Origin: Clostridiaceae bacterium
Lineage (GTDB): Bacteria > Bacillota > Clostridia > Christensenellales > CAG-917
Assembly: GCA_031289315.1 (NCBI GenBank)
Contig: JAITPR010000016.1
Coordinates: forward strand, 72,751 to 136,750
Reading direction: 5' to 3'
DNA: 64,000 bases
The notes below the pieces were generated by a model. That model saw only the letters and a list, made by a program, of their open reading frames with translations. It was not told where the DNA came from and did not search any database. Of this stretch, positions 16,249 to 63,586 are shown in pieces (positions within the stretch are counted from its first letter, which is position 1; each line of letters starts with the position of its first letter). A program made the position numbers and the translations under genes.

Positions 16249-16300
16249 GGGTGTGAACAGTTCGCGGTGACACATTCAAATAAACACGGATTTTTATTGA
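16249..16300. repeat. Decayed copy of the GTGGACA-palindrome repeat
   Basis: GTGTGAACAGTTCGCGGTGAC matches the left arm. The ..CACGGATT.. right arm is eroded. Confidence 0.5.
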
Positions 16301-20599: not shown

Positions 20600-20698
20600 G
20601 GGAACATAATCCACAAATCCTATGAAATAAAGAAGTTTATGGAACGTAATCCACAAACTTTTGAAAACGCTTGAGTTTGTGGAATGCAACCCATAAGG
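20600..20698 (-). repeat. Three iteron-like ~20-bp direct repeats at a 40-bp period (relic copy)
   Basis: GGGAACATAATCCACAAAT at 20600, TGGAACGTAATCCACAAACT at 20640, TGGAATGCAACCCATAAG at 20680. Confidence 0.75.
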
Positions 20699-22713: not shown

Positions 22714-22874
22714 CACTAATAGAATTAAAAAACGCGGTTGATGGGCAAGGAACTTGCGTCAACCGCGTTTTTAAAGTAATCAGTGTCAAGCTTCAAGCTT
22801 GCGCGTTTTTGGGATTCTTTCTTGCCGGCAAGAAAGAACGGAAACTCACACTTGTGGTTTGTGCGGCGTGACGC
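22714..22874. repeat. Mosaic multi-hairpin repeat, copy C (inverted relative to A/B; includes terminator hairpin 22727-22775)
   Basis: Modules H2, H3 (CAAGCTTcAAGCTTG) and H1 (ATTCTTTCTTGccggCAAGAAAGAAC). The first ~95 bp are nearly identical to 24407-24502. Confidence 0.85.
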
Positions 22875-24094: not shown

Positions 24095-24165
24095 GGATGT
24101 GGACAATCCGCTGTGACGATTTGCTAGGCAAGAAAATATTTTGTCACTGCGAACTGTTTCCACCC
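24095..24165. repeat. GTGGACA-palindrome repeat, full copy in the 5' UTR of the ATPase gene
   Basis: GTGGACAATCCGCTGTGACGA..AAGAAAATATTTTGTCACTGCGAACTGTTTCCACCC. The arms pair. Its end lies 20 nt from the ATG. Confidence 0.9.
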
Positions 24166-24179: not shown

Positions 24180-24208
24180 AGTATACATCGGAAATAAGTA
24201 TAAGTCAA
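24180..24208 (-). promoter_or_regulatory. ATPase promoter TTGACT-17-TATACT
   Basis: The reverse complement reads TTGACT tatacttatttccgatg TATACT. It lies between the iterons and the palindrome repeat. Confidence 0.6.
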
Positions 24209-24216
24209 ATAAAAAT

Positions 24217-24316
24217 GGGAACGCAATCCAAAAACTCTGTAAAATAAGATAGTTTTTGGAACGCAATCCAAAAACTTTCGAAATCAACGAAGTTTTGGGA
24301 ATGTAATCCAAAAACT
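24217..24316 (-). repeat. Three iteron-like 20-bp direct repeats at an exact 40-bp period, two with internal 10-bp inverted repeats
   Basis: GGGAACGCAATCCAAAAACT at 24217, TGGAACGCAATCCAAAAACT at 24257, GGGAATGTAATCCAAAAACT at 24297. AGTTTTTGGA-n6-TCCAAAAACT at 24251-24276. Confidence 0.85.
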
Positions 24317-24406
24317 TTTAAAATGATTTTAAGAAAGTTTTTTCGTTTCGGACAAGAAAAAGGGAAGTATAGGAGTAACTAAAAAGTCACCGGGTTGATG
24401 TTTGGT

Positions 24407-24622
24407 ACTAATCAATTAAAAAACGCGGTTGATGGGCAAGGAACTTGCGGCAACCGCGTTTTTAAAGTAATCAGTGTCAAGCTTCAAGCTTGCGTGTTTT
24501 TGGTTCTTTTGCCGCATAGCAAAAGAACAAGGGCGTTCTTTTGCCGCGTAGCGAAAGAACAGAGGCTCAAGCTTTAAGCTTGCAGTTTTTCAGTTCCTTT
24601 TGGGCGTCAGAAGGAACGAGAG
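24407..24622. repeat. Mosaic multi-hairpin repeat, copy D (H2 terminator 24417-24465, H3, three H1-type hairpins)
   Basis: Direct repeat of copy C across the ATPase locus. H1 hairpins at 24497-24524, 24529-24557 and 24589-24616. Confidence 0.85.
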
Positions 24623-29285: not shown

Positions 29286-29356
29286 GGGTGTGTACAATCC
29301 TCTGTGACGACTTACTGGCTAAGAAAATATTTTGTCACCGCGAACTGTCCCCACCC
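29286..29356. repeat. GTGGACA-palindrome repeat, full copy
   Basis: GTGTGTACAATCCTCTGTGACGACTTACTGGCTAAGAAAATATTTTGTCACCGCGAACTGTCCCCACCC. Confidence 0.9.
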
Positions 29357-35057: not shown

Positions 35058-35111
35058 GGGTATGTACAATTCGGTGATAAAAGATTTCGTTACCACGGGG
35101 TGTCCACACCC
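35058..35111. repeat. GTGGACA-palindrome repeat, short-loop copy
   Basis: GGGTATGTACAATTCGGTGATAAAAGATTTCGTTACCACGGGGTGTCCACACCC. Ends 17 nt before the ATG at 35129. Confidence 0.75.
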
Positions 35112-36379: not shown

Positions 36380-36446
36380 GGTGTGTATAATCCGATGTGA
36401 CGACTTGCATGCTAAGAAAATATTTTGTCACCGGAATTGCCCATCC
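36380..36446. repeat. GTGGACA-palindrome repeat, full copy in the rplI 5' UTR
   Basis: GGTGTGTATAATCCGATGTGACGACTTGCATGCTAAGAAAATATTTTGTCACCGGAATTGCCCATCC. Ends 19 nt from the ATG. Confidence 0.9.
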
Positions 36447-36499
36447 ATTTAATTAATACCGCCCGCCAACCATGTTGCGGCGCACGGATATTCCATATA

Positions 36500-36528
36500 A
36501 ATATACCACGCATGTGCCTTTTTCGCAA
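36500..36528 (-). promoter_or_regulatory. rplI promoter TTGCGA-17-TATATT
   Basis: The reverse complement reads TTGCGA aaaaggcacatgcgtgg TATATT. It lies upstream of the palindrome repeat. Confidence 0.6.
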
Positions 36529-37450
36529 GACATTTTTTGATAGGGCAGATACATATTTATGTATGCGGATTGCACAGAGATGTATCGTAAAAGTTTTCGC
36601 ACTTATTTGGGGACCTTTCGACACGACGGTGTTACGGCTATCACCGTAACACTGTCGGCTCAAGGTGACAGTCTAGAGAACAAAGCTCGGGATTGTCGAG
36701 TTCGTCGGTCATTACCGTCTGCATCTCAAGGTGACAGTCTAGAAAACAACGATCCCATTTCGGGAAGGTGTTATACTGCCGAGCATATTGTCATATTGAG
36801 CCGAAAACCTTTTTGTCTAGAGCAATATAACCCGCATTGAATGGCGGAAATATGTCCGGGAAATGTTTAGCGAAGGAGTTAAGCGGGGGAAATTTTACAG
36901 GTATATCGCACCTTAGTCGGAGGGCGGAGGCGCATTGTGCGTTGCGAAAAATGCCGTGCGGGAGGGGATCGGCGCAATTTAAAATGCGTTTGCGGGCGTA
37001 ATGTACGGAAGTACGGGCATTACAAGTTTCAACATCAAAGTAAAAAATATATTTTGTCCCTCAATTTTGCTCTTAAGAACGCGTTTCGAATAGCAAAATA
37101 TGCTCTTAAAAAATTTTTTTTTATCAAAGATGTCAAATGAGGCACTTTGTAATTAAATTTTTAGGGTGAAAGTAAAATTTTTTTTATGCAAATGTGTATA
37201 AAAACGGTTTTTTATGCGTAAAATTCATAAAAAGCGGGTTTTAATTCATATTCAGACCGCGTATAAAACCCTAATTAAGGTTGAAAAAAGCGATTTTAAA
37301 ACCCAAATTTTTATCATAATCCGCAGTTGATAATAGCAAAATATACTGATAAACATTGAATTTAGTTGAAAATAGGACTTGTCGTATTAACGTCTAACCA
37401 TGTTTATTTTGTATACAAGATCGTTTATTTACTTAAAATCCTCTGCGGGG

Positions 37451-37479
37451 TTGCATTTGGCGCAATTATGTGGTAAAAT
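37451..37479 (+). promoter_or_regulatory. Promoter TTGCAT-17-TAAAAT
   Basis: TTGCAT 37451-37456, TAAAAT 37474-37479. Confidence 0.6.
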
Positions 37480-37486
37480 CTAACGG

Positions 37487-37815
37487 AAGCTAAAGTTTTA
37501 AAAAGACTTGGTGTGACGGGAGTCGCGGGGCTTGCCCCCGGGTTGTCGGGCAGGGAATGAATGCGGAGTTTACGAAGCAGAAACCGCATGACTTTACTTG
37601 ACGGTATCCCCTCTCGTCTTTCGCTAAGAAAAACTTTTAAACTACTTGTACGCTAAAAGGCGTATGGGGGATGGTCGAGCTAAAGCGGAGGATTTCCGTG
37701 CAAGGCAAGCACGTACCGTGCGTCGTATCGTGGGCGGTTCCAAAAGATTGAACGTAGGATGAAACTGTTTTAGGTCAGTCGTAACGGTCGTTTAGAAATA
37801 CTTGAGAGGTGAGAT
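37487..37815 (+). promoter_or_regulatory. ~330-nt GC-rich leader upstream of the glucokinase gene (possible cis-regulatory RNA, class unknown)
   Basis: No ORF. Local hairpins include CGGGGcttgCCCCG at 37526 and ATGCGG..CCGCAT at 37561-37589. No intrinsic terminator seen. Confidence 0.3.
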
Positions 37816-39834: not shown

Positions 39835-41745
39835 ATGCCGACTTTAGAGCAACGCATCAATAGAATACTTCTTAACGTTGAAAAACCCGCCCGTTATACC
39901 GGCGGAGAATTTAATACGCCGAATATGAAGAAAGCTCAGGCGCACAACAAATTGGCGCTCTGCTTTCCCGATGTCTACGAAATCGGAATGAGTAATTTGG
40001 GGCTTTCAATTCTCTATCACGCCGTGAACGCCTTACCCGCGTGGACGGCGGAGCGCTGTTTTGCCGTTAAAGCGGATATGGCACGCGAAATGAACGCGAA
40101 CGGTATTCCGCTGTTTTCGCTTGAAACAAAAACTCCTTTGAGGGAGTTTGACGCGATTGGTTTTTCCCTGCAATACGAGTTGCTGTACACGAACGTGTTG
40201 TACATGCTGGAGCTTGCCGGTATACCCTTTCGCGCCGCCGACAGAAAAAATGGAAATTATCCTCTGATAATAGCCGGCGGACCGTGTACGGTTAACCCCG
40301 CGCCGACAGAGGCTTTTTTCGATATTGTCGTGGTGGGTGAGGGCGAGAACGCGCTTGTCGCGCTGGCTAACCTTATAGACGAGGAAAAACAAAAGGGCTT
40401 TGACAGAGAGCGCGTTTTGGAGCGTGCCGAATGCATTCAAGGCGTGTACGCACCCGCGCGCGCGCACGCGAACAATAAATGTGCCACAAGCGGCGTTCAG
40501 AACGGTGATAAAACTTCCTCAAGCGGTACGCGAAAGCGTACGGTATTAAAAGCCGTCGTCGAAGACTTAAACGGCGATAAAACTTCCTCAAGCGGTACGC
40601 GAAAGCGTACGGTATTAAAAGCTACCGTCGAAGACCTGAATAAGGTTTTTTATCCGTTAAAGCCTCTCGTGCCTAACATAGAGATAGTGCATGACCGTGC
40701 CGTAATGGAGTTGTACAGAGGTTGCGGCAGCGGTTGCCGTTTTTGTCAAGCGGGGTTCTATTACCGTCCGTTGAGAGAAAAGGACGCCCAAACAGTTATT
40801 AATTGCTCGAAAGCCATGATTGAAAACACCGGCTTCGACGAGTTAACCATGTCCAGCCTTTCAAGCGGCGACTATACGCATCTGCTTGAAGCCGTTGAAG
40901 CGTTAAAGGATTTTACCGATAAAAAGCGTGTGCGCATAGCATTGCCGTCGCTTCGTTTAAACAGCTTTGACGGGCGTCTTGCCGATTATACGCGTAAGAG
41001 TTCGCTTACGTTTGCGCCGGAAGCCGGTACGCAGCGGTTGCGCGACGTGATTAACAAAAACATCACCGATGCGGATATCGACAATATCGGCGCCATGTTT
41101 GAGGCGGGTTACAGAAGCGTAAAACTTTATTTTATGTTGGGGCTTCCCACGGAAACCGATGAGGATTTGGACGGAATTGCCGAAATATGCCGCCGTTTAC
41201 GCGCGCTTTACGTCAAAACCGTAGGTAGAAAGGATGTCACGATTTCCGTTAGCTGTTCGGTATTTATTCCTAAACCGGTGACGCCCTTCCAATGGGAAAG
41301 GCAGATAAGCGTTGAGGAAATGCGCACTAAGCAGTATTATTTACGCAATAAACTCCGCGATATAAAGGGAGTTACCTTTGGTTGGCACGACGCCGAAACC
41401 TCCGAACTGGAGTCCGTGTTGGCGCGCGGCGACGAAAGGCTAGCGGCGGTAATCGAACGCGCTTACGCGGATGGCTGCAAGTTCGACGGTTGGACGGAAA
41501 GCTTTGATTTTGCCAAATGGCAGGGTGCTTTTCAAAAGGTCGGCGTCGATATGGGCGATTATACGCGCGCGATACCTACGGATGCGACGCTTCCGTGGGA
41601 TTTTATTGACACCGGCGTGGATAAGTCATATCTGCTTGCGGAGCGCGAAAAGGGCTTGCGCGCGGAGGTGACGGCTAATTGCCGCGACGGTTGCAACGGG
41701 TGCGGAGCAAATAAATTGGGCGCGTGCTTGGCGGGTAAATTATGA
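39835..41745 (+). CDS. B12-binding-domain radical SAM protein (TIGR03960-like), carrying an in-frame 69-bp tandem duplication
   Basis: CGSGCRFCQAG cluster motif. The 23-aa unit NGDKTSSSGTRKRTVLKA.VEDL occurs twice (40501-40638). Confidence 0.85.
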   Translation: MPTLEQRINRILLNVEKPARYTGGEFNTPNMKKAQAHNKLALCFPDVYEIGMSNLGLSILYHAVNALPAWTAERCFAVKADMAREMNANGIPLFSLETKTPLREFDAIGFSLQYELLYTNVLYMLELAGIPFRAADRKNGNYPLIIAGGPCTVNPAPTEAFFDIVVVGEGENALVALANLIDEEKQKGFDRERVLERAECIQGVYAPARAHANNKCATSGVQNGDKTSSSGTRKRTVLKAVVEDLNGDKTSSSGTRKRTVLKATVEDLNKVFYPLKPLVPNIEIVHDRAVMELYRGCGSGCRFCQAGFYYRPLREKDAQTVINCSKAMIENTGFDELTMSSLSSGDYTHLLEAVEALKDFTDKKRVRIALPSLRLNSFDGRLADYTRKSSLTFAPEAGTQRLRDVINKNITDADIDNIGAMFEAGYRSVKLYFMLGLPTETDEDLDGIAEICRRLRALYVKTVGRKDVTISVSCSVFIPKPVTPFQWERQISVEEMRTKQYYLRNKLRDIKGVTFGWHDAETSELESVLARGDERLAAVIERAYADGCKFDGWTESFDFAKWQGAFQKVGVDMGDYTRAIPTDATLPWDFIDTGVDKSYLLAEREKGLRAEVTANCRDGCNGCGANKLGACLAGKL

Positions 41746-42368
41746 TAATTTTGAAGTATCGAAAGACCGGAAGCGCACGCTATATTTCGCATATAGACGT
41801 CTTGCGCGGTATGGGGCGGATTTTGCGGCGCGCGGGGCTGGAACCCACCTTTTCGCAGGGCTTCAATCCTCATATGAACCTATATTTTTCGCCGCCCATA
41901 GCGCTGGGGCTGGGAAGCGTCGCGGAATACATGGCGGTCGACATACCGGAGGTTAGCCCGGAGGATTTTCTTAAGAAATATAACGCGGCGGCTCCCGACG
42001 GTTTAAAGGGTATTTCCGCAGAATATGCGGAAAAAAATCCGAATTTTGCGGCAAACGTCAAGGCGTTCGTCTACCGTACGGAGCTGAAAGGGAGTGCGGA
42101 AGCGCTTGCCAAAATTGAGAAAATCAAGGACGTTTATAATATAACGTACACACAAAAGGGCGAAACCGTAACAAAGGATGTGGGCGCGCTTATCCGTAAA
42201 ATAGAAAGAAGAGGCGATTCGGAATTCTTTTTTACGCTTGCCGCCGGTGCGGAGGTTTTACGTCCCGACAGACTACTCAAGCAGTTGGAGGTTGATTTCG
42301 GCATAGAATACAGCCTTCCCGAGGTTACAAAAACCGAACAACTTTTTGGGGTGGACAATCCGCGTTGA
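41742..42368 (+). CDS. Radical-SAM-associated DUF2344 (TIGR03936-like) protein
   Basis: ARYISHIDVLRGMGRILRRAGL..FSQGFNPH; 4-nt overlap with the upstream radical SAM gene. Confidence 0.8.
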   Translation: MIILKYRKTGSARYISHIDVLRGMGRILRRAGLEPTFSQGFNPHMNLYFSPPIALGLGSVAEYMAVDIPEVSPEDFLKKYNAAAPDGLKGISAEYAEKNPNFAANVKAFVYRTELKGSAEALAKIEKIKDVYNITYTQKGETVTKDVGALIRKIERRGDSEFFFTLAAGAEVLRPDRLLKQLEVDFGIEYSLPEVTKTEQLFGVDNPR

Positions 42369-42520
42369 CGACTTGCTGGCTAAGAAAATCTTTTCGGCTC
42401 TTTTTAGTCTAAAACCGTCTGAAATGCTCGTCCGGTAGCGGTGCTACGACTGTGCTTTTAGGTAATTTATCCTTACAAATAGCCGAAAAAATATTTTATC
42501 ACCGCAAATTGTCCACATCC
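42348..42520. repeat. GTGGACA-palindrome repeat, long form with a ~85-bp palindrome-ended insert in the loop
   Basis: Left arm 42348-42397 (overlaps the last codons of the CDS). The insert is bounded by CTTTTCGGCT/AGCCGAAAAA. Right arm 42483-42520. Confidence 0.85.
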
Positions 42521-42708
42521 AAACTTCTTTGACGCCGTAGCGTCTTACGATACAAAAACAAACCGCGTAAAGAGCGTGTTTACACTCTAAAAACCGCGTA
42601 AAAAGTAAAAACAACCTGCGTAAAGCCGCGCCCCATACCGGACCAAAGGAGAAACCTAAGGTTTTTTCCGTCCGACATTAGGCGTGATTATACGCTAAAG
42701 AGTTCTCA

Positions 42709-44199
42709 ATGAAGAAAATTTATATCGACTCATATCCTACACGCGCAGCAGCGGTCGTCATTGAAGACGGACGGGTCGTTGAATTTCTCGCCGAAAAGGA
42801 CAGAACTCCGAAGCTCGTGGGCAACATCTACAAGGGCAGGGTCGTCAATACCTTGCAAGGCATGAAGGCGGCGTTTGTCGATATAGGACTTTTAAAAAAC
42901 GCCTATTTAGATATGGGCGAATTGCCCTTCGAGGTAAGTAAGGCGGAATTCGACGGAGAAAAGATTTGCCGTCCGTTGCGGTTGGCTCCGGGCGCCGTCA
43001 TCATGTGTCAAGTCGTCAAGGAGCAGTTCGGCACAAAGGGACCGCGCGTTTCGCCGGTGGTGTCTATTCCGGGCAGATACTCCGTTATCGTACCCGATAG
43101 CGCGATGTTTTTGGTGTCGCGCAAGATTTCCGATTTGTCGCGTCGCGCGGAGTTAGAAGCGCTTATGCGCGCGAATGCCGCGCCTAATACCGGGTTTATT
43201 GCGCGCACCTTAGCGGAAGACGCCTCCGACGAGGAAATCATAGGCGATATGCGCTTTATAACCGACCGTTGGGAAAAAATTAAAGCCGACTATGAGCGCA
43301 CTCCCGTAAAGGGTTTGGCTTACGCCGACGGCGATTTACTTATCCGCACAATAAGGGATTTGATAACGCCCGACATTGAAGAGCTCGTCGTCAATAACGC
43401 GGCGGATTACGAAAGGTTTCGCGGTTTGCTTGACCGATGCGGCATTCCTAACGAAATATTAAAAATTTACGACGGCGACGAGTATATCTTTGCGCGCTAC
43501 GGCATCATTCCGCAGATTAAGACGGTGTTGGCAAGGCGCGTAGATATGGACAACGGGGGTTATTTGATAATAGACAGAACCGAAGCTCTCACCGTCATAG
43601 ACGTGAATACCGGCAAGTTTGTCGGCGAGACGGACTTACAAGATACGATTTTTAAAATGAATATGGCGGCGGCGGAGGAGATTGCCCGTCAGATACGTCT
43701 TCGCAATATAGGCGGCATTATCATAATTGATTTTATTGATATGCGCCGCAAGGAGTGCCGCGAAGCCGTCATCTCTAAGCTGTCCGAATGCGTCAAAAGC
43801 GACCGCATTAAAACATCTGTACTGGGCATGACGCAGCTAGGCTTAGTGGAGATTACCCGCCGCAAGGAATGTTCTGTCGTCAACGACATGTTTGTCGTCG
43901 AATGTCCCAATTGTGAGGGCATGGGCGTGATTTTCGTAGACGAAGTGTTGGTTCTCCGCGTTCGCGAAGCCCTTTTCCGTTTCTTTGAGAAAAACCCGTG
44001 CGACGCCGTCGTAATAACGGTTAACCCCGCGGTCGCCAAAGAAATAAACGCGTATAACATCTTTAACCGTGAGTTCGTCAAGGGCAAGTCAAAAACCCTC
44101 TATCTAGTCGAAGAAGCCTCCTTTGAGCTTAATTCCGTCGACATCAAAAATGCCCGCGCTTTCCCGCAAGAAACCCTTGATACCTTTGTAAAACTATAA
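42709..44199 (+). CDS. rng: Ribonuclease G/E family (Rne/Rng) endoribonuclease
   Basis: S1 domain GNIYKGRVVNTLQGMKAAFVDIG; catalytic region IDRTEALTVIDVNTG; zinc-link CPNCEG. Confidence 0.9.
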   Translation: MKKIYIDSYPTRAAAVVIEDGRVVEFLAEKDRTPKLVGNIYKGRVVNTLQGMKAAFVDIGLLKNAYLDMGELPFEVSKAEFDGEKICRPLRLAPGAVIMCQVVKEQFGTKGPRVSPVVSIPGRYSVIVPDSAMFLVSRKISDLSRRAELEALMRANAAPNTGFIARTLAEDASDEEIIGDMRFITDRWEKIKADYERTPVKGLAYADGDLLIRTIRDLITPDIEELVVNNAADYERFRGLLDRCGIPNEILKIYDGDEYIFARYGIIPQIKTVLARRVDMDNGGYLIIDRTEALTVIDVNTGKFVGETDLQDTIFKMNMAAAEEIARQIRLRNIGGIIIIDFIDMRRKECREAVISKLSECVKSDRIKTSVLGMTQLGLVEITRRKECSVVNDMFVVECPNCEGMGVIFVDEVLVLRVREALFRFFEKNPCDAVVITVNPAVAKEINAYNIFNREFVKGKSKTLYLVEEASFELNSVDIKNARAFPQETLDTFVKL

Positions 44200-44292
44200 T
44201 AAATATATGGGGCGTATTCGCGTTAGACGTGCGCTTGTTGTTTCCTTTGTCCACTCTCAATCCTCAATAAAAATCTTGTCATTATTGTTTCC

Positions 44293-44460
44293 GCATGGCT
44301 TTGGAGTACGTTGTTGCTATCGCCCCGATTGCCGTTTCGGAGTTTTGAGCATGGTTGCCGCTATATCGTTTGCTATCGCCCCGATTGCCGTTTCGGAGTT
44401 TTAAGCATGGTTGCCGCTATATCGTTTGTTATCACTCCGATTGCCGTCCGGAGTTTTCAT
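44293..44460. repeat. 56-bp tandem repeat x3 in a convergent intergenic region
   Basis: Units GCATGGTTGCCGCTATATCGTTTGCTATCGCCCCGATTGCCGTTTCGGAGTTTTRA start at 44293, 44349 and 44405. Confidence 0.85.
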
Positions 44461-44530
44461 TTTGGATACGGCATTATTATACACCCCTTTTTGGCGATAA
44501 GTCAAGATTTCATGTCACAATTTATCGAGT

Positions 44531-45091
44531 TTATTTTTTCAAGATGTTTTGCTGATTGCTGAACAGGTAGTTTAGCGTGGTTATAACCGAGGCGGGTGTG
44601 TCGTCCGGAAACTGTGTGATAGCAACTCTAAGGGCGGCAAAAAGCATTGATACACGGACATTGATAAAATATTTCCAGCTTCGCGTATCAAGTTGAGCAA
44701 CCTCTTTGATGAAGGAAAACTTTGTTTCAATTGTCGATACCACTTGAGTTTGAAACCATTCATACAGATTGGACTCCATAAGTGCAAAAAATAAGGCTTT
44801 TTGGTTGAGCCAAATATCAAACAAGGCATTTAAAAGGTCGTCGATACCGGTTGTTTTTTCGCTAGAAAAATGTTCTAAAAGTGCTAAAGAAATGCCTTCC
44901 GTCTGATAGAGAATTACATCGGATTTATCGTCAAAGAGTCTATAAAACGTCGCCCTGCCGACGCCGGCGCACTCCGCAATTTCGGTAACGGTTAGCATAG
45001 AATAAGGCTTTTTTTGCATGAGCGTATTTAGTCCGTCGCAAATTAACTTCGCCGAATCACGTTTACGTTTGTCGTTTCCGATACGATACAT
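44531..45091 (-). CDS. TetR/AcrR-family transcriptional regulator
   Basis: HTH TVTEIAECAGVGRATFYRLFDDKSDV; AGGAGG SD. Confidence 0.88.
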   Translation of the reverse strand: MYRIGNDKRKRDSAKLICDGLNTLMQKKPYSMLTVTEIAECAGVGRATFYRLFDDKSDVILYQTEGISLALLEHFSSEKTTGIDDLLNALFDIWLNQKALFFALMESNLYEWFQTQVVSTIETKFSFIKEVAQLDTRSWKYFINVRVSMLFAALRVAITQFPDDTPASVITTLNYLFSNQQNILKK

Positions 45092-45194
45092 TTTTATGCC
45101 TCCTGTCCCACTTCTCTAAATGGACTTTTTTTTCCTTAAGCATCTTGAATTCCACCCTATGCTATGATACAATAGTATCATAGGATAAAACGTT

Positions 45195-46775
45195 ATGTCA
45201 ATAGGGGGCGATAATTTGGATAATATAACTTCAAGTCGAGTTACAACGAAAAGAGAACGACGGGATTACGGACTGTTTTTCATCGGTCAAAATATGTTTT
45301 ATCTTTTTGTGATGAACTTCATTCAGAATTATTTTACCGATGTCGTTGGAATGGCAGCCGGAACGGTTGCTATAATAATCCTTATTGCAAGGCTGTGGGA
45401 TGCCGTAAACGACCCTATTTTTGGCGGAATTGTGGATAGAAGCCGTCTTAAAGGCGGGCGTTTTAAGCCGTGGCTGAAGCTATCACTCTGTATTTTGCCG
45501 ATTTTCACTATCGGGCTGTTTGCCGTGCCGTCGGGGCTGGCGTTGCCTATCAAAACCGCGATATGCGCAATTGTTTATTTCGTTTGGGGAATGGCTTTTA
45601 CGGTATGCGACGTGCCTATTTATTCACTTTCTACCGCTATGACAAATAACATGCAGGAACGCACCGCATTGATTGCACGCGGCAGACTGAACAGTACCTT
45701 TGGCATAATGGCGGTAATCCTTGCTACCGTGCCGCTCACGGGGTTATTCAGCAGACTTATTGGAAACGAATCTCAAGCGTGGTTGATTGTCGCCGTAATA
45801 TTCTCGGTAATAGCCTTCTTTTTCATGCGCCCGATTGCCAAAAGCGCAACCGAAAGGTTCATTGACCAAAGCACCAAAGCGTTATCTATAAAAGGAATTT
45901 TTTCATACTTAAAATCCAACAAATACCTGCTTATTTTTTACAGCGCAATGATTATATTCAGCCTGACCAATACCGTCAGCACCTTGTCGCTTTATTTCGC
46001 AACGGTAAATCTAGGCGACAAAAATATGTTTATTGTGGTGACGCTTATAACCATGATAGGCGCGCCGTTTGTTTCCATTTTTCTACCTAAGCTAAACAAG
46101 AAATTTGACAAGTTCCAAATTTTCATGTTCGGAATGGCGGTCGCTATTGTGACAAGCGTGATAATCTATTTTGTGGGATATGAGGGAGTAAGATTTGTGC
46201 CGTTTTTGATACTCTCGTTTATCAGAGGCGTAGGATTTTCTTGCACAATGGTAATGTCATATATGTTTGCGGCGGATTGTATAGAATACGGCACATATAA
46301 GAGCGGAAAAAGAGCGGAGGGGATTACGTTTTCTATTCAAACCTTTACCACTAAAATGACCGGCGCTATTTCCGGCTTCATTGCAATGGGCTTGCTAGGT
46401 TGGTTCTTTAACTATCAATCGGCTTACTATGTGGACAATGTGCTTATCAGCCCCGTTCAGCCGCAAAGCGCCGTCACGGGAATATGGTTTATGTATTCGA
46501 TTTTCCCCGCAATCGGAGCGATAATCGCGTTTATCATACTGATATTGCTGTATAAACTGCGTGATAATGACGTCCAGATTATGGCTAACGTCAACTCCGG
46601 TGAAATCACCGTTGAGGAGGGCGAAAGGCTGTTGAATGAAAAACATGGCGGAGATGTAAAAAGCGAATCCAGCGAAGAGGGTGAAAGACCGTTGAATGAA
46701 GAGCATGACGGAGAGGAGGAAGGATCGTCGAATGAAGAGCACGACGAAGATAATAAAAATAAACCCGTTGAATAG
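45195..46775 (+). CDS. Glycoside-pentoside-hexuronide (GPH/MelB-like) MFS symporter with a repetitive acidic C-terminal tail
   Basis: 12-TM profile; motif DAVNDPIFGGIVDRS. The start is uncertain: ATG at 45195, or TTG at 45216 preceded by AGGGGG. Confidence 0.85.
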   Translation: MSIGGDNLDNITSSRVTTKRERRDYGLFFIGQNMFYLFVMNFIQNYFTDVVGMAAGTVAIIILIARLWDAVNDPIFGGIVDRSRLKGGRFKPWLKLSLCILPIFTIGLFAVPSGLALPIKTAICAIVYFVWGMAFTVCDVPIYSLSTAMTNNMQERTALIARGRLNSTFGIMAVILATVPLTGLFSRLIGNESQAWLIVAVIFSVIAFFFMRPIAKSATERFIDQSTKALSIKGIFSYLKSNKYLLIFYSAMIIFSLTNTVSTLSLYFATVNLGDKNMFIVVTLITMIGAPFVSIFLPKLNKKFDKFQIFMFGMAVAIVTSVIIYFVGYEGVRFVPFLILSFIRGVGFSCTMVMSYMFAADCIEYGTYKSGKRAEGITFSIQTFTTKMTGAISGFIAMGLLGWFFNYQSAYYVDNVLISPVQPQSAVTGIWFMYSIFPAIGAIIAFIILILLYKLRDNDVQIMANVNSGEITVEEGERLLNEKHGGDVKSESSEEGERPLNEEHDGEEEGSSNEEHDEDNKNKPVE

Positions 46776-46826
46776 GGTGAAAGATCGTTAAGTGAGAACC
46801 ATGACAAAGATAATAAAATCGGAGGA
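46614..46826 (+). repeat. ~57-60-bp tandem units forming the transporter tail and continuing past its stop codon
   Basis: GA(G/A)GAGGG(C/T)GAAAG.C.GTTGAATGA..A.CATG.CGGAG units at 46614 and 46674. A third unit at 46771 carries TAG in place of GAG. Confidence 0.8.
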
Positions 46827-46837
46827 GATTAAGAAGT

Positions 46838-48613
46838 ATGATTGATTTAAAGGGAAGTCCTTTTTGTCTTAGCGACAGCGACATCGAGTGGGTGAACGGA
46901 ACCCTAAGCGGCATGACGCTTAAAGAAAAAATCGGGCAGCTGTTTTGTCCGCTTGGGCTTTTATCTAACCGTAAAAGCTTATTGCACTTGATGAAAGAGG
47001 TTGCAATCGGCGGGATTATGTTCCGTCCGACGAAGGGCAAGCATGCTCAAGGTACGCATAGGTTTTTGCAGAACAACTCCAAAATTCCGCTTTTGATAGC
47101 GGGCAACCTTGAAAGCGGCGGCAACGGGGCGGCGGCGGACGGCACGTATTTTGGCATGCCTATGCAAATTGCCGCCACCGGAAACGCGGAGATGGGTTAC
47201 CATTTGGGAAAAATAAGCTGTGCCGAAGGCGCGGCGACGGGGATAAATTGGGCGTTCGCGCCGATTGTTGACATTGATAAAAATTTTCGCAATCCTATAA
47301 CCAATCTTAGAACCTTCGGAAGCTCCCCGGACACGATAATAAGTATGGCAAGGGGATACATGCGCGCGGCGGATGAAAGCGGCGTTGCCGTGGCAATTAA
47401 GCACTTCCCCGGCGACGGCGTGGACGAAAGGGACCAACACCTGCTTACCAGCGTCAACACCTTAAGTCAAGCGGAGTGGGATGAAACCTACGGCAAAATT
47501 TATTCGGAGTTAATTGCGGCGGGCGCCAAAACCGTTATGGTAGGGCATATCGCGTTGCCGTCATATCAAAATTTATTAGAGGGCGTTGAGCGGAAAAAAA
47601 CGGTACCGGCAACCCTGTCTAAGGAATTAATGTGCGGACTGCTTAGAGAAAGGCTTAGGTTTAACGGCTTGATTGTCACGGACGCCTCTCCCATGGCGGG
47701 ATTTTGCGTGGCGATGAAGCGGGAATATGCCGTACCCTTAGCCATAGAGAACGGAGCGGATATGTTTTTATTTGCGCGGGATTTGGCTACGGACTATAAA
47801 TATATGGTGACCGGAGTGGAAAAAGGGATACTTTCGGAGCTTCGGCTTAACGAAGCGGTGACGCGAATCCTAGCGCTCAAGGCATCCTTGAAGCTGCACG
47901 TCAAGGCCAAGGAAAACAGTCTGGTGCCTTTGCCTTCAGCTCTGAATATATTAAAAAGCAAGCAAAGCCTTGCGATTACGGAAAAATGCGCGGACGAAAG
48001 CGTTACGCTGGTGAAGGATACGCAAAAGCTTTTGCCGATTTCGCCGGCGCTTCACAGGAGAGTATATCTCAACGTATTAGAAAACAGCGACGGTATACAC
48101 TCCTTGCTCAAGAGTAAATTAAAGCAAAAGCTAGAGGCAGAGGGCTTTGCCGTTACCGTGCGCAACAGGGCGGCAATTGCCGATTTAGGGATTTTGGTGA
48201 GCCCTGAAAGAACCTCAATCTTCAAGAAGGTATCCGTACTTTTCAAAGCGCGGAAATCTTTAAGCGAGTTGGTTGGCTCACCGAATGATTTTATAGCCAA
48301 ATATGACTTGGCGATCTATGTCGCTTGTTTTGAAACGGCAAGCGAAACTACGGTTGTTCGCCTCAATTGGAAGGGCTTTAAGGGAATCGGCAACGATATT
48401 CCGTGGTTTGTAAACGACGTGCCGACGATATTTATCAGTCTTGCAAATCCGTATCACCTATTGGACGTACCCATGATTAAGACCTTTATAAATGCGTATA
48501 CGAACAGTGAACCGGTTATTGATGCGGTAATCGACAAAATTCTAGGGAGAAGCGAATTCAAGGGCATTTCTCCCGTTGACGCGTCCTGCGGTCGTGAGGA
48601 CGTCTTATATTGA
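46838..48613 (+). CDS. Glycoside hydrolase family 3 (beta-N-acetylhexosaminidase/beta-glucosidase-like)
   Basis: GH3 motifs KHFPGDG and GLIVTDA; GGAGGAG SD. Confidence 0.88.
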   Translation: MIDLKGSPFCLSDSDIEWVNGTLSGMTLKEKIGQLFCPLGLLSNRKSLLHLMKEVAIGGIMFRPTKGKHAQGTHRFLQNNSKIPLLIAGNLESGGNGAAADGTYFGMPMQIAATGNAEMGYHLGKISCAEGAATGINWAFAPIVDIDKNFRNPITNLRTFGSSPDTIISMARGYMRAADESGVAVAIKHFPGDGVDERDQHLLTSVNTLSQAEWDETYGKIYSELIAAGAKTVMVGHIALPSYQNLLEGVERKKTVPATLSKELMCGLLRERLRFNGLIVTDASPMAGFCVAMKREYAVPLAIENGADMFLFARDLATDYKYMVTGVEKGILSELRLNEAVTRILALKASLKLHVKAKENSLVPLPSALNILKSKQSLAITEKCADESVTLVKDTQKLLPISPALHRRVYLNVLENSDGIHSLLKSKLKQKLEAEGFAVTVRNRAAIADLGILVSPERTSIFKKVSVLFKARKSLSELVGSPNDFIAKYDLAIYVACFETASETTVVRLNWKGFKGIGNDIPWFVNDVPTIFISLANPYHLLDVPMIKTFINAYTNSEPVIDAVIDKILGRSEFKGISPVDASCGREDVLY

Positions 48614-48656
48614 GAGATGTTTTCTTGCGGTACGTTAGCGAACTGCAAAATTTCAT

Positions 48657-48725
48657 GGTGTGGACAGTTCGCGATGATAAAATATTTTCTTAACCGGCAA
48701 GTCATCAGCGCGGATTATTCACATC
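48657..48725. repeat. GTGGACA-palindrome repeat, full copy (opposite orientation on the + strand)
   Basis: GTGGACAGTTCGCGATGAT(48660-48678) pairs with ATCAGCGCGGATTATTCAC(48704-48722). Ends 23 nt before the ATG at 48749. Confidence 0.9.
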
Positions 48726-48748
48726 TAATTTTAGGGAGGAATGCGGCG

Positions 48749-49708
48749 ATGTCTAATCCGCTTACACTTAATGACGACGACGTAAGAGTTATCGACGCCA
48801 AAAATGCGGAGCAACGCTTGTATGATTATTACGGGCTGAAGCCGGTATACCACTATATACCTTGCGAAAGGCTAGGAATTAAAATCCGCGTATGCGAAGT
48901 CGGCACGGGCGATCCCGTTTTGATAGTACCCGGCAATACTGGCGATAGCTTTCCGTTTGTGCCGCTCATGGCGGGGCTACGCGGGAAACGAATACTTGCC
49001 TTTAACCGTCCCGGAGGCGGCTTGAGCGAGGGCATAAATCACCATACGATAGGCTTCAAGGAACTGGCGACGGAAACGCTCACCGGCGTGCTTGACCACT
49101 TCTCTATCGGGCAATTGCCGGTTATTTCACATTCCATGGGCAGCCATTGGAGTTTGTGGTTTGCCGCTACCGCGCCGGAGCGGATAGAAAAGCTTGTCCT
49201 ACTAGGCGTCCCCGGCAATGTTCTGCGGTGCAAGCCGCCGTTGTTATTGAGGTTGGCGGCTATACGCGGTTTAAACAAGGCAATGTTTGAAAAAATAACG
49301 CCCAAAAGCGTTGAATCATCCTTGAAAGGGTTGACCTTTATGGGGCATTCAAGGGATACTCTGCAAGCGTTGCCGCAGGCTATGAGGGAGTGTTATTATT
49401 ATTTCCCGCGGTTGCCGCATTATGCCGAGTCCAGTCTTAGCTTGATGGAAACGACAAACACACTCTTCGGTTCCAAAAAATCGATACTAATCAACGCGGA
49501 CGACCTAAAAGATATCAATCAAAAAATACTGCTGATTTGGGGAGAAAACGACCCCTTCGGAAACGTAAAGGAAGGGGAAAAAATCGCGGCAATTTTACCC
49601 GACGCAAGGTTGGAACTAATACGGGGCGGCGGACATCTGCCGTGGTTGGATGCTCCGGCGGCTTGCGGCGAATCGGTACAAGCGTTTCTTGACGGTGAAG
49701 ATAAATAG
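48749..49708 (+). CDS. Alpha/beta-fold hydrolase
   Basis: Nucleophile elbow SHSMGS. Start at MSNPLTL with GGGAGG SD; the ORF-track start at 48617 runs through the repeat. Confidence 0.85.
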   Translation: MSNPLTLNDDDVRVIDAKNAEQRLYDYYGLKPVYHYIPCERLGIKIRVCEVGTGDPVLIVPGNTGDSFPFVPLMAGLRGKRILAFNRPGGGLSEGINHHTIGFKELATETLTGVLDHFSIGQLPVISHSMGSHWSLWFAATAPERIEKLVLLGVPGNVLRCKPPLLLRLAAIRGLNKAMFEKITPKSVESSLKGLTFMGHSRDTLQALPQAMRECYYYFPRLPHYAESSLSLMETTNTLFGSKKSILINADDLKDINQKILLIWGENDPFGNVKEGEKIAAILPDARLELIRGGGHLPWLDAPAACGESVQAFLDGEDK

Positions 49709-49792
49709 GGCAGGCAATTCCCTACATCTGCTTAGTGTGACACACTATATTTTTTATGCATAAGCCTTGAAAGATAACCGTGCAAAAAGTAC

Positions 49793-49821
49793 TTGACATA
49801 TGTTGAGTGTTGCCGCATAAT
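49793..49821 (+). promoter_or_regulatory. Promoter TTGACA-17-CATAAT
   Basis: TTGACA 49793-49798, CATAAT 49816-49821. Confidence 0.6.
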
Positions 49822-49885
49822 AAATAAAACGGAAAACAGCTTAGCAAAAGGGCTTTTTCCGTAAAACTGACAAAAAGAGGGCGCG

Positions 49886-49972
49886 ATGTTTTTCTTCGGG
49901 ATTATAATTAGCGGAATAATTATTACCATAGCGATTATTAAGATTGCTAAATTCCGCCGTTCCCCGAGATAA
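49886..49972 (+). CDS. Candidate 28-aa hydrophobic peptide MFFFGIIISGIIITIAIIKIAKFRRSPR (small membrane protein or type I toxin-like)
   Basis: AGAGGG 5 nt upstream of the ATG. One TM helix plus a basic tail. It has its own promoter and terminator. Absent from the ORF track (under 60 aa). Confidence 0.45.
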   Translation: MFFFGIIISGIIITIAIIKIAKFRRSPR

Positions 49973-50000
49973 GACGCCGCACTACTTAAAAAGGCATTTG

Positions 50001-50032
50001 AACCCCCGGGCCGTACGGCTTCGGGGGTTTTA
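50001..50032 (+). terminator. Intrinsic terminator after the small peptide ORF
   Basis: AACCCCCG ggccgtacggct CGGGGGTT plus TTTT. Confidence 0.6.
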
Positions 50033-50040
50033 AAATTTAA

Positions 50041-50110
50041 GGGTATGGACAATTCGCGGCGACAAAAAAATTTATTGCCTGGCAAGTCGTCACATCGGAT
50101 TGCCCGCACC
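50041..50110. repeat. GTGGACA-palindrome repeat, full copy
   Basis: GGGTATGGACAATTCGCGGCGACAAAAAAATTTATTGCCTGGCAAGTCGTCACATCGGATTGCCCGCACC. Ends 23 nt before the ATG at 50134. Confidence 0.9.
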
Positions 50111-50133
50111 AAAATTTAACAAGGAGTTTTTTT

Positions 50134-50688
50134 ATGACTGAACAACTTAGAGAAATCGGCAGGCGTCTTGCGGAATTGCGCGACGCGGCGGAGATGACGG
50201 CGGAGGCGTTCTGCAAGGAAGCCGACGTGAGTTTAAGCGAACTTGCCGCATACGAGGAGGGCAAGAAGGATTTTTCTTTTTCCTTTCTTTATAACGCCGC
50301 GCATATTTTGGGCGTGGACGTAATGGATTTGATGAGCGGTGACACTCCGCGGCTTTCGTCTTGGTGCGTGGTTAAAAAGGGCAAGGGTTACACGGTAAAC
50401 CGCCGTTCCTCCTACAAATATTCGCATTTGGCATTCACCTTCCGCGATAAGAAAGCCGAACCGTTTTTGGTTACGGTGGAGCCGAAGACGGCGGCGGAGG
50501 TTGCGCTTCATTCGCACGACGGACAGGAGTTCGACTGGATTGTTTCCGGGCGCATACTCTTTAAAATTGCCGACGTGTCTTACGAACTGGAAGCCGGCGA
50601 CAGCGTATATTTCAACTCTGCGCTTCCTCACGCGATGTCCGCATTAGACGGCAAGTCCGCGCAATTTATTGCCGTAGTCATGAAATAG
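50134..50688 (+). CDS. XRE-family HTH regulator with a C-terminal cupin domain
   Basis: N-terminal HTH_3 (LRDAAEMTAEAFCKEADVSLSELAAYEEG) and cupin (HSHDGQEFDWIVSGR...GDSVYFNSALPH). Confidence 0.88.
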   Translation: MTEQLREIGRRLAELRDAAEMTAEAFCKEADVSLSELAAYEEGKKDFSFSFLYNAAHILGVDVMDLMSGDTPRLSSWCVVKKGKGYTVNRRSSYKYSHLAFTFRDKKAEPFLVTVEPKTAAEVALHSHDGQEFDWIVSGRILFKIADVSYELEAGDSVYFNSALPHAMSALDGKSAQFIAVVMK

Positions 50689-50700
50689 GAGTAAGCTTTT

Positions 50701-52383
50701 ATGCCGCTATACGAATTATATACGGGCAAAAATCGCGACGATTTTGCCACACTAGAAGATTTACAAAAAAATTACAAACTCACGGTTCCGGACGATTTCA
50801 ACTTTGCGTTCGATTGCCTTGACCGTTTAGCCGCCGAAAAGCCGGATGCGCTTGCGTTGCTTTGGATTTCCAACGACAACGAGGAAAAGCGGTTCACCTA
50901 CGGCGATATACGCAAGCTTAGCCTAAAAGCCGCCAATTTCTTCAAAAAACACGGCATCGGCAAAGGTGATATGGTTATGCTTACCATGAGCCGCGACTGG
51001 CGGTTTTGGCCGGTACTCATGGGGCTTCACCGCATGGGCGCGACGGCGGTTCCCGCTTCCTACTTGCTCACCGCGAAGGATATAGTATACCGCATGAACG
51101 CCGCGTCTATAAAAATGCTTCTCACAACTCCGCGTTTCGGCGTTACTCAAGCCATGGAGGAGGCGCTTTCACAGTGTCCTACCGTTAAAAAGCTAGCCGT
51201 GTTTGGCGGCAAGCTGCCCGCGTCAAATCTGTGGATAGATTTCGATAAGGAGTTGGAAGCCGCGCCGGAAACGCCGTTTAAACGTTGCACAATCAAGTCT
51301 GATACCATGCTTATGGCATTTTCGTCCGGCACAAGCGGATACCCCAAAATGGTTCAGCACGACTACACGTATCCGTTGGGACACATTCCGACCGGCTGTT
51401 TTTGGCAACGTTGTATCGACGGCGGTCTGCACCTCACCATATCCGACACCGGTTGGCTTAAAAGTCTTTGGGGCAAGATGTACAGCCAATGGCTTGCCGG
51501 CAGCGCGGTTTTTTGCTACGACTTCGACAAGTTCTCCGCGTCCGACATCCTTGAAAAAATCGAAAAATATAAGGTGACTACCTTCTGCGCCCCCCCGACG
51601 ATGTACCGCTATATGATTAAAGAGAACCTCAAAAAATATGATTTCTCTTCACTCAAGCACTGCTGCGCCGCCGGCGAAGCCCTTAACCCCGAAATCTATA
51701 AGGTGTGGTTTGCCGGTACCGGGCTTAAAATATTTGAGGGCTTCGGACAAACCGAAACCACCCTGTCCTGTTGGACCGGCTATCCGTGGATGCAACCGCG
51801 CTTAGGCTCTATGGGGCTTCCCGCCCCCGGCTACCGCATGATAGTCTGCGACGAAACCGGCGTCGAACTGGGCGCCGGCGTCACCGGAGAAATTTGTATC
51901 CGTACCGACGACGCGGGCGGCGGTAAGCCCTACGGGCTGTTCAAGGGCTACTACCGCGACGCGGAGATGACCTCCCAAATTTGGCACGACGGCATATATC
52001 ATACCGGCGATACCGCCTATAAGGACGAGATGGGCTTCCTCTGGTACGTGGGGCGTATGGACGACGTGATTAAATCCTCCGGCTACCGCATAGGTCCATT
52101 TGAGGTCGAGTCCGCACTCATGGAACACCCCGCCGTCACCGAATGTGCCGTTACCGGGCTGCCGGACCCCGAACGCGGTTTCGTCGTCAAAGCCACCGTG
52201 GTTCTCTCCACCGGTTATACGCCCTCCGACGCGCTCACTAAAGAGCTGCAAAACCATGTCAAAAAGGTGACCGCTCCCTATAAATACCCCCGAGTAATCG
52301 AGTATGTCGACGCGCTTCCCAAAACCGTTAACGGCAAAATCCGCCGCGTAGAAATCCGTAACCGCGACATCGAAAAGAAATAG
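50701..52383 (+). CDS. AMP-forming acyl-CoA synthetase (medium-chain/AcsM-like)
   Basis: AMP-binding motif FSSGTSGYPK, plus YHTGD and SSGYRIGPFEVE. Confidence 0.9.
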   Translation: MPLYELYTGKNRDDFATLEDLQKNYKLTVPDDFNFAFDCLDRLAAEKPDALALLWISNDNEEKRFTYGDIRKLSLKAANFFKKHGIGKGDMVMLTMSRDWRFWPVLMGLHRMGATAVPASYLLTAKDIVYRMNAASIKMLLTTPRFGVTQAMEEALSQCPTVKKLAVFGGKLPASNLWIDFDKELEAAPETPFKRCTIKSDTMLMAFSSGTSGYPKMVQHDYTYPLGHIPTGCFWQRCIDGGLHLTISDTGWLKSLWGKMYSQWLAGSAVFCYDFDKFSASDILEKIEKYKVTTFCAPPTMYRYMIKENLKKYDFSSLKHCCAAGEALNPEIYKVWFAGTGLKIFEGFGQTETTLSCWTGYPWMQPRLGSMGLPAPGYRMIVCDETGVELGAGVTGEICIRTDDAGGGKPYGLFKGYYRDAEMTSQIWHDGIYHTGDTAYKDEMGFLWYVGRMDDVIKSSGYRIGPFEVESALMEHPAVTECAVTGLPDPERGFVVKATVVLSTGYTPSDALTKELQNHVKKVTAPYKYPRVIEYVDALPKTVNGKIRRVEIRNRDIEKK

Positions 52384-52384: not shown

Positions 52385-52560
52385 GGAATAAGGCATAGTT
52401 CTTTTTGCCCGCGCAAAAAGAACCCAAAGTTGGTGCGCCTTGCGAGGTTCGCAAGGCGCACTGCGCAAGCTTGAAGTTTGACCCTGATTACTTGAAAAAC
52501 GCGGTTGACGCAGGATTATATCCTTAGCGTCAACCGCGTTTTTAAATTCATTAGTGTTAA
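52385..52560. repeat. Mosaic multi-hairpin repeat, copy F (H1, an extra 13-bp hairpin, H3, H2 terminator 52494-52544)
   Basis: GTTCTTTTTGcccgcgCAAAAAGAAC; GTGCGCCTTGCGAggtTCGCAAGGCGCAC; CAAGCTTgAAGTTTG; AAAAACGCGGTTGACGC..GCGTCAACCGCGTTTTT. Confidence 0.85.
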
Positions 52561-52658
52561 CCCTCTCACTTACCGTTCTTTATGTTCGTTATTTCTTCTC
52601 AATAGGAGCGGACAAAACAGATTTTTTTGGTTTTTGCGGTAAATTATAAAATTAATGC

Positions 52659-55143: not shown

Positions 55144-55212
55144 GGGCGTGGACAATACGAGATGACGACTTGCGAGGCAAGAAAATATTTTACATAGCGA
55201 ACTGTCCGCACC
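55144..55212. repeat. GTGGACA-palindrome repeat, full copy between tyrA and aroB
   Basis: GGGCGTGGACAATACGAGATGACGACTTGCGAGGCAAGAAAATATTTTACATAGCGAACTGTCCGCACC. Ends 22 nt before the ATG at 55235. Confidence 0.9.
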
Positions 55213-55234
55213 AATCTTAGATAGATGGAGATTT

Positions 55235-59165: not shown

Positions 59166-59190
59166 ATTCTAAATATAACTAAAGAAAAAA

Positions 59191-59232
59191 CGGATTGTCC
59201 GTACCCAAAGAAACAAGGGGATGTCCGCACCC
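59191..59232. repeat. Two arm-end fragments of the GTGGACA-palindrome repeat
   Basis: CGGATTGTCCGTACCC (59191) and GGGATGTCCGCACCC (59217). The second ends 18 nt before the ATG at 59251. Confidence 0.6.
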
Positions 59233-61715: not shown

Positions 61716-61790
61716 AAAACGCTAAAAAAACGCTAAAAAAACGGCAAAAAAAACGGCAAAAAACCATAAAAAACGCCTTTAAATACCGCA
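61713..61790 (+). repeat. Phased A-tract array (A6-8 every 10-12 bp) starting at the aroE/aroK stop codon
   Basis: TAAAAAACGC TAAAAAAACGC TAAAAAAACGGC AAAAAAAACGGC AAAAAACCAT AAAAAACGCC. Confidence 0.85.
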
Positions 61791-61956
61791 AGAAAAGAGA
61801 GTGCCGCCGCGATTACCGTAGGCGAAAAATCCATAAAAACCGCGTTTAAACGACGGCGGGGTGTATCGGCGAAGCCGCGGCGGATTTTGATGAAATACGT
61901 AATTAGGATTTTAGTCTTAAAGCGCGGAAAATAAAAAAACAAAACGGACTTAAAAT

Positions 61957-62767: not shown

Positions 62768-62833
62768 GGGCGTGGACAATTTTATCCTTAGAAATAGCTT
62801 GAAAATATTTATCACCGCGAATTGTCCCTACCC
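62768..62833. repeat. GTGGACA-palindrome repeat, internally deleted derivative of the long form
   Basis: GTGGACAAT is joined directly to TTTATCCTTAGAAATAGCTTGAAAATATTTATCACCGCGAATTGTCCCTACCC, which aligns with 42467-42520. Confidence 0.8.
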
Positions 62834-63570: not shown

Positions 63571-63586
63571 CGGATTGTCCACGCCC
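63571..63586. repeat. Half copy of the GTGGACA-palindrome repeat right after a stop codon
   Basis: CGGATTGTCCACGCCC; compare GCGGATTATCGCCC at 16629 after the stop of the KOW gene. Confidence 0.55.

Follow-up and report, generated by a model that had tools for sequence, protein, structure and literature searches.

A probable MITE family in a Clostridiaceae contig and its long form at the end of a DUF2344 gene

A DUF2344 gene in a 64-kb stretch of DNA from a Clostridiaceae bacterium (the window, by which the whole analysed stretch of 64,000 nucleotides is meant) ends inside a 174-bp long copy, at 42348-42521 on the + strand, of a hairpin-forming imperfect-palindrome repeat of about 70 nt. The locus raises the question of what kind of element this repeat is, and whether the long form was made by insertion of a second small element into the short form or is the older form from which the short copies were derived by deletion. 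The preliminary description had proposed two intact arms and a loop interrupted by about 85 bp with inverted termini. Both arms have been located, and the interruption measures 79-99 bp depending on the ends chosen; the termini originally named, CTTTTCGGCT (42390-42399) and AGCCGAAAAA (42479-42488), are complementary at 9 of 10 positions. In the current analysis the boundaries of the interrupting module have been set at 42393-42487 (95 bp), which gives the following organisation.

42348..42521, + strand: long-form element, 174 bp (sequence, nhmmer profile and folding)
42348..42369, + strand: left arm, terminal inverted repeat GGGGTGGACAATCCGCGTTGAC
42370..42384, + strand: small inner hairpin GACTTGCTGGCTAAG, found in every full copy
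42385..42392: left 8-bp direct repeat AAAATCTT beside the module; canonical copies have a single AAAATATTTT at the same place
42393..42487, + strand: 95-bp palindromic module (the insert), with termini TTCGGCT / AGCCGAA and a central hairpin GTAGC-GGT-GCTAC
42488..42495: right 8-bp direct repeat AAAATATT, followed by TT before the right arm
42498..42521, + strand: right arm, terminal inverted repeat ATCACCGCAAATTGTCCACATCCA

The module interrupts the canonical hairpin at its apex, between the direct repeats AAAATCTT/AAAATATT (7/8 match), and its ends are perfect 7-bp inverted repeats. When 178 nt comprising the long form were folded as DNA the energy was -26.8 kcal/mol (z -3.8), and as RNA -48.5 kcal/mol (z -3.3); in both cases none of the 200 shuffled sequences equalled it.

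Repeat finding and an nhmmer profile have revealed a family with the consensus GGGTGTGGACAATCCGCTGTGAC-GACTTGCnnGGCAAG-AAAATATTTT-GTCACCGCGAACTGTCCACACCC, comprising six full copies (E-values 1e-19 to 1e-22), two or three internally deleted copies and several solo arms, about 11 members of 52-174 bp in 64 kb. All are intergenic or at gene edges and they occur on both strands relative to the flanking genes. A pattern of the 23 invariant core bases has seven matches in the window, all of them left cores, against 0.00 expected, and the family is not a chance pattern. The members other than the long form are as follows.

24096..24165, + strand: canonical copy, duplication GTGATTAC/ATGATTAC
29287..29356, + strand: canonical copy (repeat finding, nhmmer)
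36380..36446, + strand: canonical copy, 19 nt upstream of the rplI start, duplication TTTATTTA/TTTAATTA
48656..48725, - strand: canonical copy (repeat finding, nhmmer)
50041..50110, - strand: canonical copy, perfect duplication TTAAATTTT
55145..55213, + strand: canonical copy, duplication AGCTTAGA/ATCTTAGA
35059..35111, - strand: short copy of 52 nt without the inner hairpin (nhmmer)
62768..62833, + strand: deletion derivative of a long form, GGACAAT fused to the distal module TTTATCCTTAGAAATAGCTTG and the right arm
16250..16282, - strand: right-arm-only remnant with GTTTATTTG on each side
59190..59231, - strand: two tandem solo-arm remnants
63571..63585, - strand: solo-arm remnant

The internal losses amount to 14 nt in the copy at 35059-35111 and about 106 nt in that at 62768-62833, while most of the element is missing from the copy at 16250-16282 and from the solo arms. 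Since the mean column identity among the full copies is 76%, most of the copies are old. The core TGAYGAYTTRC..AAGAAAATATTTT is better conserved across the copies than the arms are.

In seven of the 11 members (24096, 36380, 48656, 50041, 55145, 35059 and 59190) the distance from the end of the copy to a start codon downstream is 17-23 nt, which places the end in the AT-rich segment immediately preceding the Shine-Dalgarno sequence. This placement could reflect a preference for AT-rich 8-mer targets, or tolerance or exaptation of the copies as 5'-proximal hairpins of the mRNA. Two mechanically called ORF starts, 29332 and 48617, fall inside or beside repeat copies and are likely artefacts; translation probably begins at 29396 in the one case and, as called on an independently assembled contig, at 48749 in the other. 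ORF starts that lie within copies indicate that start-codon calling can be misled by the repeat.

All the full copies are bounded by the terminal inverted repeats GGGTGTGGACAAT / ATTGTCCACACCC. AT-rich 8-bp direct repeats abut these inverted ends and match at 7 or more of the 8 positions in five of nine copies, as compared with 0.6-1.1% of random site pairs scored likewise (binomial p 1e-9 to 2e-8). The duplication flanking the long form, AACTTTTT/AACTTCTT, matches at 7 of 8 positions; the duplications differ in sequence from copy to copy and are 8 bp in length. The family thus has terminal inverted repeats and an 8-bp duplication of fixed length, and its members are small, numerous and devoid of ORFs; this combination places it in the class of MITEs. 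It is a new MITE family of a well-known kind, and the finding is a genuine one.

In the closest available relative, L002 (76% identity in DUF2344), the spacer between DUF2344 and rng reads caa ata ata tga and holds no element, and the site upstream of rplI that is occupied by the copy 36380-36446 in the window is also empty. As this comparison is a distant one, the empty sites are weak evidence on the timing of the insertions. No family copies were found in about 48 kb of DNA of related MAGs, and since no second genome with the family has been found, we infer its mobility from this one distant comparison. The proposal that the family has been dynamic is supported by the 8-bp duplications, the two empty orthologous sites, the several deletion derivatives and the solo arms: the insert recurs at a second locus in the window, and the orthologous loci of the relative do not share the arrangement. 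A Pfam scan of the ten larger unassigned ORFs of the window gave no transposase, and no autonomous element bearing the family ends was found in the 64 kb. A transposase encoded outside the window would recognise the GGGTGTGGACAAT...ATTGTCCACACCC ends and make staggered 8-bp cuts in AT-rich targets, and the repeat would then be a remnant of a non-autonomous, cut-or-copy DNA transposon.

Bacterial MITEs are likewise small and devoid of ORFs, with terminal inverted repeats and target duplications of fixed length (8 bp here), dispersed intergenic copies, hairpin-forming transcripts and decay by internal deletion. They are in general non-autonomous derivatives of DDE insertion sequences; for the present family, neither a partner insertion sequence nor a sequence homologue was found in the collections searched. 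An AT-rich duplication of 8 bp suits several IS families under the ISfinder conventions, namely IS256, ISL3, IS1595, IS6 and IS66. The ERIC or IRU elements of Enterobacteriaceae are also imperfect palindromes of intergenic, transcribed regions. ERIC, with a consensus of 127 bp, reportedly occurs in a standard form, in internally deleted shorter forms and in longer forms with insertions of about 70 bp at specific internal sites, a size pattern that matches the one observed here. The two differ in that there is no sequence similarity, the host phylum is another, and ERIC-type elements are flanked by TA (PMC3184786), where this family has 8-bp duplications. Membership of the ERIC / IRU group was rejected on these flanks and on the lack of any blastn match to the long form in 5,426 ERIC-carrying E. 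coli genomes (28 Gb).

The Correia elements of Neisseria (CREE/NEMIS) resemble the family in having two size classes, in forming long hairpins in mRNA and in lying near gene starts and ends; the classes differ by an internal segment, at about 104-157 bp (PMC3184786 Table 1). Correia elements, however, duplicate TA, possess an IHF site and have documented promoter and RNase III effects. Assignment to Correia or RUP elements has been rejected, the duplications here being 8 bp long and varied and not TA.

The end of the DUF2344 gene carries a record of the insertion.

41742..42368, + strand: DUF2344 / TIGR03936 radical-SAM-associated gene (PF10105)
42340..42347: left target-site duplication AACTTTTT
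42522..42532: right target-site duplication AACTTCTT (42522-42529), then the ancestral stop TGA

The last seven codons of the gene, GGG GTG GAC AAT CCG CGT TGA, are element sequence, so that the left arm supplies the final codons and the stop (GVDNPR*), as had been noticed earlier. The protein (MDR3216202.1) ends in ...KTEQLFGVDNPR, that is ...EQLFGVDNPR. Its two closest homologues among 5.8 billion proteins (76% and 55% identity) end in ...KLEQII* and ...KTAQIL*; these orthologues terminate 6-7 residues before the window protein and are without the GVDNPR tail. A TGA follows directly upon the right copy of the duplication, from which a pre-insertion reading of EQL(L/F)* can be derived. Removal of the element and one duplication gives GAA CAA CTT CTT TGA, or EQLL*, in frame and of orthologue length, which indicates that the insertion hit the last two codons of DUF2344. 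The suspicion that the repeat had replaced the native gene end is thereby upheld by the orthologues and by the TGA beyond the right duplication. On the proposed mechanism, insertion into the last codons would have duplicated AACTTYTT and displaced the native stop, and the frame-2 reading of the left arm (G V D N P R stop) would have added the tail, six residues net.

Cases in which a repeat lengthens the 3' end of a gene are on record (PMC3184786), and at ECA4072 an overlap of 16 nt with RU-2 adds four residues (PMC2759123). Like the RU-2/YPAL element at that gene, and like BOX and RPE, the long form reaches into the 3' end of a conserved gene, to which it gives new C-terminal residues absent from orthologues. 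It differs from the RU-2/YPAL cases in that the ancestral stop can be rebuilt exactly from the right duplication, with a net tail of six residues.

The copy at 62768-62833 reads GGGCGTGGACAAT fused to TTTATCCTTAGAAATAGC..., in full GGGCGTGGACAAT followed by TTTATCCTTAGAAATAGCTTGAAAATATTTATCACCGCGAATTGTCCCTACCC. The preliminary description had taken it for a left arm joined to the distal part of the insert and the right arm at about 85% identity. Our alignment with 42463-42522 has 48 identities in about 58 aligned positions (about 83%), and from TTTATCC onward the copy aligns with 42466-42521. The module-specific 18-mer TTTATCCTTAsAAATAGC, allowing up to one mismatch, occurs in the window only in the long form and in this copy. 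As the module sequence stands in the same register beside the right arm, the copy is a long form that has lost about 106 bp (106-107 bp), from where the left arm ends to the distal part of the module, in accordance with the deletion suggested before. Of the AAT microhomology proposed for the junction, the AAT at both edges holds, but the match is exact only if a 1-nt difference in a T run is allowed. No flanking duplication is recognisable at this copy. Module sequence is present in two family copies separated by about 20 kb, which implies that the composite itself has been copied, however it arose, and we infer that it was propagated as a unit.

The direction of the module event has to be deduced from these few copies. 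The reading that we slightly favour, with a probability of roughly 0.45, is that the module entered the canonical element as a second small inverted-repeat element. The 70-nt element would have received the 95-bp palindromic module at its AT-palindrome apex, founding the long-form sub-lineage; the termini TTCGGCT/AGCCGAA would be those of the incoming element and the AAAATMTT copies its own 8-bp duplication. The composite would then have transposed as one unit through its outer ends, the copy at 62768-62833 would later have lost about 106 bp at or near AAT, and that at 35059-35111 may be a composite from which recombination of the two direct repeats beside the module has removed it. Removal of the module and one repeat gives back the canonical apex AAAATCTTTT-ATCAC, the direct repeats beside the module have the same length (8 bp) as the family duplications, and short forms outnumber long ones in the window. 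Against insertion, every trace of the module lies within family copies, which would be expected at least as much if the long form were ancestral; no solo module was found in the 64-kb window or in the extra 2.2 kb of L008. The self-complementarity of AAAATATTTT means that the direct repeats may be the two arms of one long palindrome. It is quite possible, if not our preference, that the 174-bp form, as one long imperfect palindrome, is the older and that the 70-nt form was derived from it when strand slippage or recombination between the two AAAATMTTTT copies deleted the interior, and afterwards out-multiplied it, with 62768-62833 and 35059-35111 as further deletion products. Internal deletions are demonstrably common in the family, Correia size classes formed by internal deletion are known (about 104-157 bp; PMC3184786 Table 1), and the whole long form folds as a single continuous hairpin. 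The copy at 35059-35111 has in common with the long form the C variant AAATCTTTT, ATCAC and AATTGT; it joins the C variant of the left repeat to ATCAC as a crossover within the repeats would, and the deletion model needs no extra substitution to explain this. If the long form is ancestral, on the other hand, the deleted form must have become the main amplifier (the window has six full short copies and two or three derived from long forms), and precise deletions must have occurred independently at least twice. The module moreover has a perfect inverted repeat of its own whose ends coincide with the repeat boundaries, a feature that an arbitrary interior segment could well lack. A more specific form of the insertion reading, namely that the module is a very small inverted-repeat element in its own right, not described before, with the self-complementary AAAATATTTT apex of another MITE as its target, and that the MITE-in-MITE composite became a new mobile unit, is less likely than not. 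A weak nhmmer match of the module at 2752-2790 proved to be unrelated coding sequence.

Three further explanations concern the reality or the nature of the repeat. Logan contigs from run SRR14710897 of the same strain are 100% identical to the window, and those retrieved cover 40593-42389, 42468-44343, 44373-51017 and 52528-66219. They span the family copies at 48656, 50041, 55145 and 62768 unbroken and break on both sides of the long form, at 42389 and 42468. That this independent assembly is without 42390-42467 would be expected if the interior had been wrongly threaded at a repeat by the MAG assembler; such an artefact is very improbable, for the left contig includes the left arm and the inner hairpin and stops at AAGAAAAT (42389), the right one begins inside the distal module at TATCCTTACAAATAGCCGAAAAAATATTTTATCACC (42468), from which the junction of module and right arm can be taken as real, and the copy at 62768-62833 keeps the same arrangement of module and right arm on a contig that spans it unbroken. 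At the breaks 40593, 44343 and 44373, 31-mers repeated in the window form a stretch into which the contig extends by exactly 30 nt. By this rule the two breaks at the long form imply another sequence in the sample that has 31-mers in common with it, those at the left break starting at 42360 and those at the right break ending at 42497. The stretch ending at 42497 covers the junction of the module and the right repeat, where 62768-62833 differs at several positions, and this suggests that a further copy, more closely related to the long form, exists beyond the window; the break could alternatively be due to low coverage or to sequence from another organism in the sample. The idea that the palindromes serve a function as structured RNA or as cis-regulatory hairpins, whether terminator, attenuator, sRNA or a riboswitch-like structure, with an extra domain in the long form, draws on the strong hairpin, on compensatory changes at three pairs, on the core being more conserved than the arms and on the placement of 7/11 members before start codons. 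As an account of the origin of the family it is improbable and largely refuted by the occurrence of both orientations relative to the flanking genes, the 8-bp flanking duplications, the empty orthologous sites and the overwriting of a gene end. Covariation in the six copies is moreover no stronger than in shuffles, the score being reached in 37 of 500 and the two-sided pair changes in 47 of 500, and there is neither an Rfam match nor a terminator-like U tract. Least probable of all is a REP/REPIN-type element spread on single-strand hairpins by a RAYT, an IS200/IS605-like tyrosine transposase. The palindromic, intergenic nature of the family, its solo and paired arms and the GTAGC..GCTAC hairpin of the module recall such elements, but REP/RAYT and IS200/IS605 transposition makes no target duplication, the element ends lack a GTAG/CGTC tag, the arms differ from G+C-rich stems of 20-40 nt, no RAYT-like ORF was seen among the window ORFs scanned, and the GTAGC hairpin occurs singly, at chance-level frequency.

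A search of the whole window with Rfam 15 at the gathering score gave 0 matches, and within 42250-42720 the only two matches (E 3.8 and 9.5) were to unrelated eukaryotic families. One-sided changes in the hairpin are about 10 G-U as against 5 A-C and carry no strand signal. No intrinsic-terminator-like site was found in 42200-42750, the right flank being CCAAACTTCTTTGACG. A candidate promoter TGGACA-N16-TATTTT on the opposite strand of the right arm was rejected, as it is of chance frequency and unconserved across the copies.

Beyond the window, a strict core pattern (5 window matches by eye) had no match in 185,579 species genomes and a right-arm pattern (4 window matches by eye) none in 241 million metagenome records. 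The pattern of 23 invariant positions was found neither in these metagenome records and species genomes nor in IMG/VR, and a module-specific pattern had no match in IMG/VR. The source contig itself is without a match in the collections, and these zeros therefore speak for other organisms only. Comparison of the long form with plasmids and phages by blastn gave matches at chance level or none, and the concatenated open-frame translations of the element gave nothing at E<=10 against 5.8 billion proteins. Paralogues of an AAA_14/DUF4143 ATPase led to orthologues in the related MAGs L004-L007, with no family copies. As far as the data go, the family would be confined to this sparsely sampled lineage; it seems to be undescribed, but elements of this kind, and such behaviour, are commonplace.

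The window also contains a second, unrelated palindromic family of about 100 nt, GCGCAAGCTTGAAG...TTGAAAAACGCGGTTGACGC / GCGTCAACCGCGTTTTTAA..., at 1159-1263, 1987-2091, 22723-22820, 24377-24510 and 52463-52565, and in L008 at 13660-13692. Its copies are 84-98% alike, have exact 31-mers in common and break the Logan assembly, and it looks younger than the 70-nt family. Kinship of the module with this family, considered for the common TATCCTTAG, was without nhmmer support. Direct repeats of 151 nt at 1138-1288 and 1966-2116 (98% identical, 828 nt apart) overlap copies of the second family and bracket a NUDIX gene (1443-1904).

Tandem repeats have been identified within the radical-SAM gene 39835-41745 (40501-40638, an in-frame 69-bp or 23-codon duplication, 91% identical), downstream of rng (44314-44425, intergenic, 56 bp x2, 98% identical) and near the window end (63743-63913, intergenic, 69 bp x3). 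Phased A-tract repeats with a spacing of about 10-12 nt (TAAAAAACGGC...) occur among 2931-2994, 61713-61798 and 42564-42625, and three ACCGCGTAAA motifs lie directly downstream of the long-form element, upstream of rng. The region 36450-37815, 1.3 kb without a large ORF upstream of a ROK-family gene, contains CTCAAGGTGACAGTCTAGARAACAA twice (36657-36750) and has no Rfam match at the gathering score; a promoter-like TTGCATTTGGCGCAnTTATGTGGTAAAATC upstream of the ROK-family gene is conserved in L002 (745-1407) and stands ahead of a leader of about 330 nt. In a low-GC stretch at 20-24 kb (GC about 0.40), fragments 20481-20559 and 20563-20696 are 75-90% identical to 22876-22954 and 24180-24313 respectively. 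They resemble the 3' end of the AAA_14/DUF4143 ATPase gene and its upstream region, about 2.4-3.6 kb away, and are suggestive of either a duplicate in decay or a mobile cassette.

For annotation, these results mean that MDR3216202.1 carries a tail of 6-7 residues that is derived from the element and is foreign to the native protein. The locus offers a worked example, from uncultured Clostridia, of a miniature transposon that rewrites a gene end and leaves the old stop codon as its footprint, and the family shows long, canonical, deleted and solo-arm size variants side by side in one lineage. Should the module be a separate element, this would be a case of nested MITE parasitism, of interest to mobile-element specialists and unsurprising, and the MITE-in-MITE composite would represent modular evolution of bacterial non-autonomous elements on a small scale.
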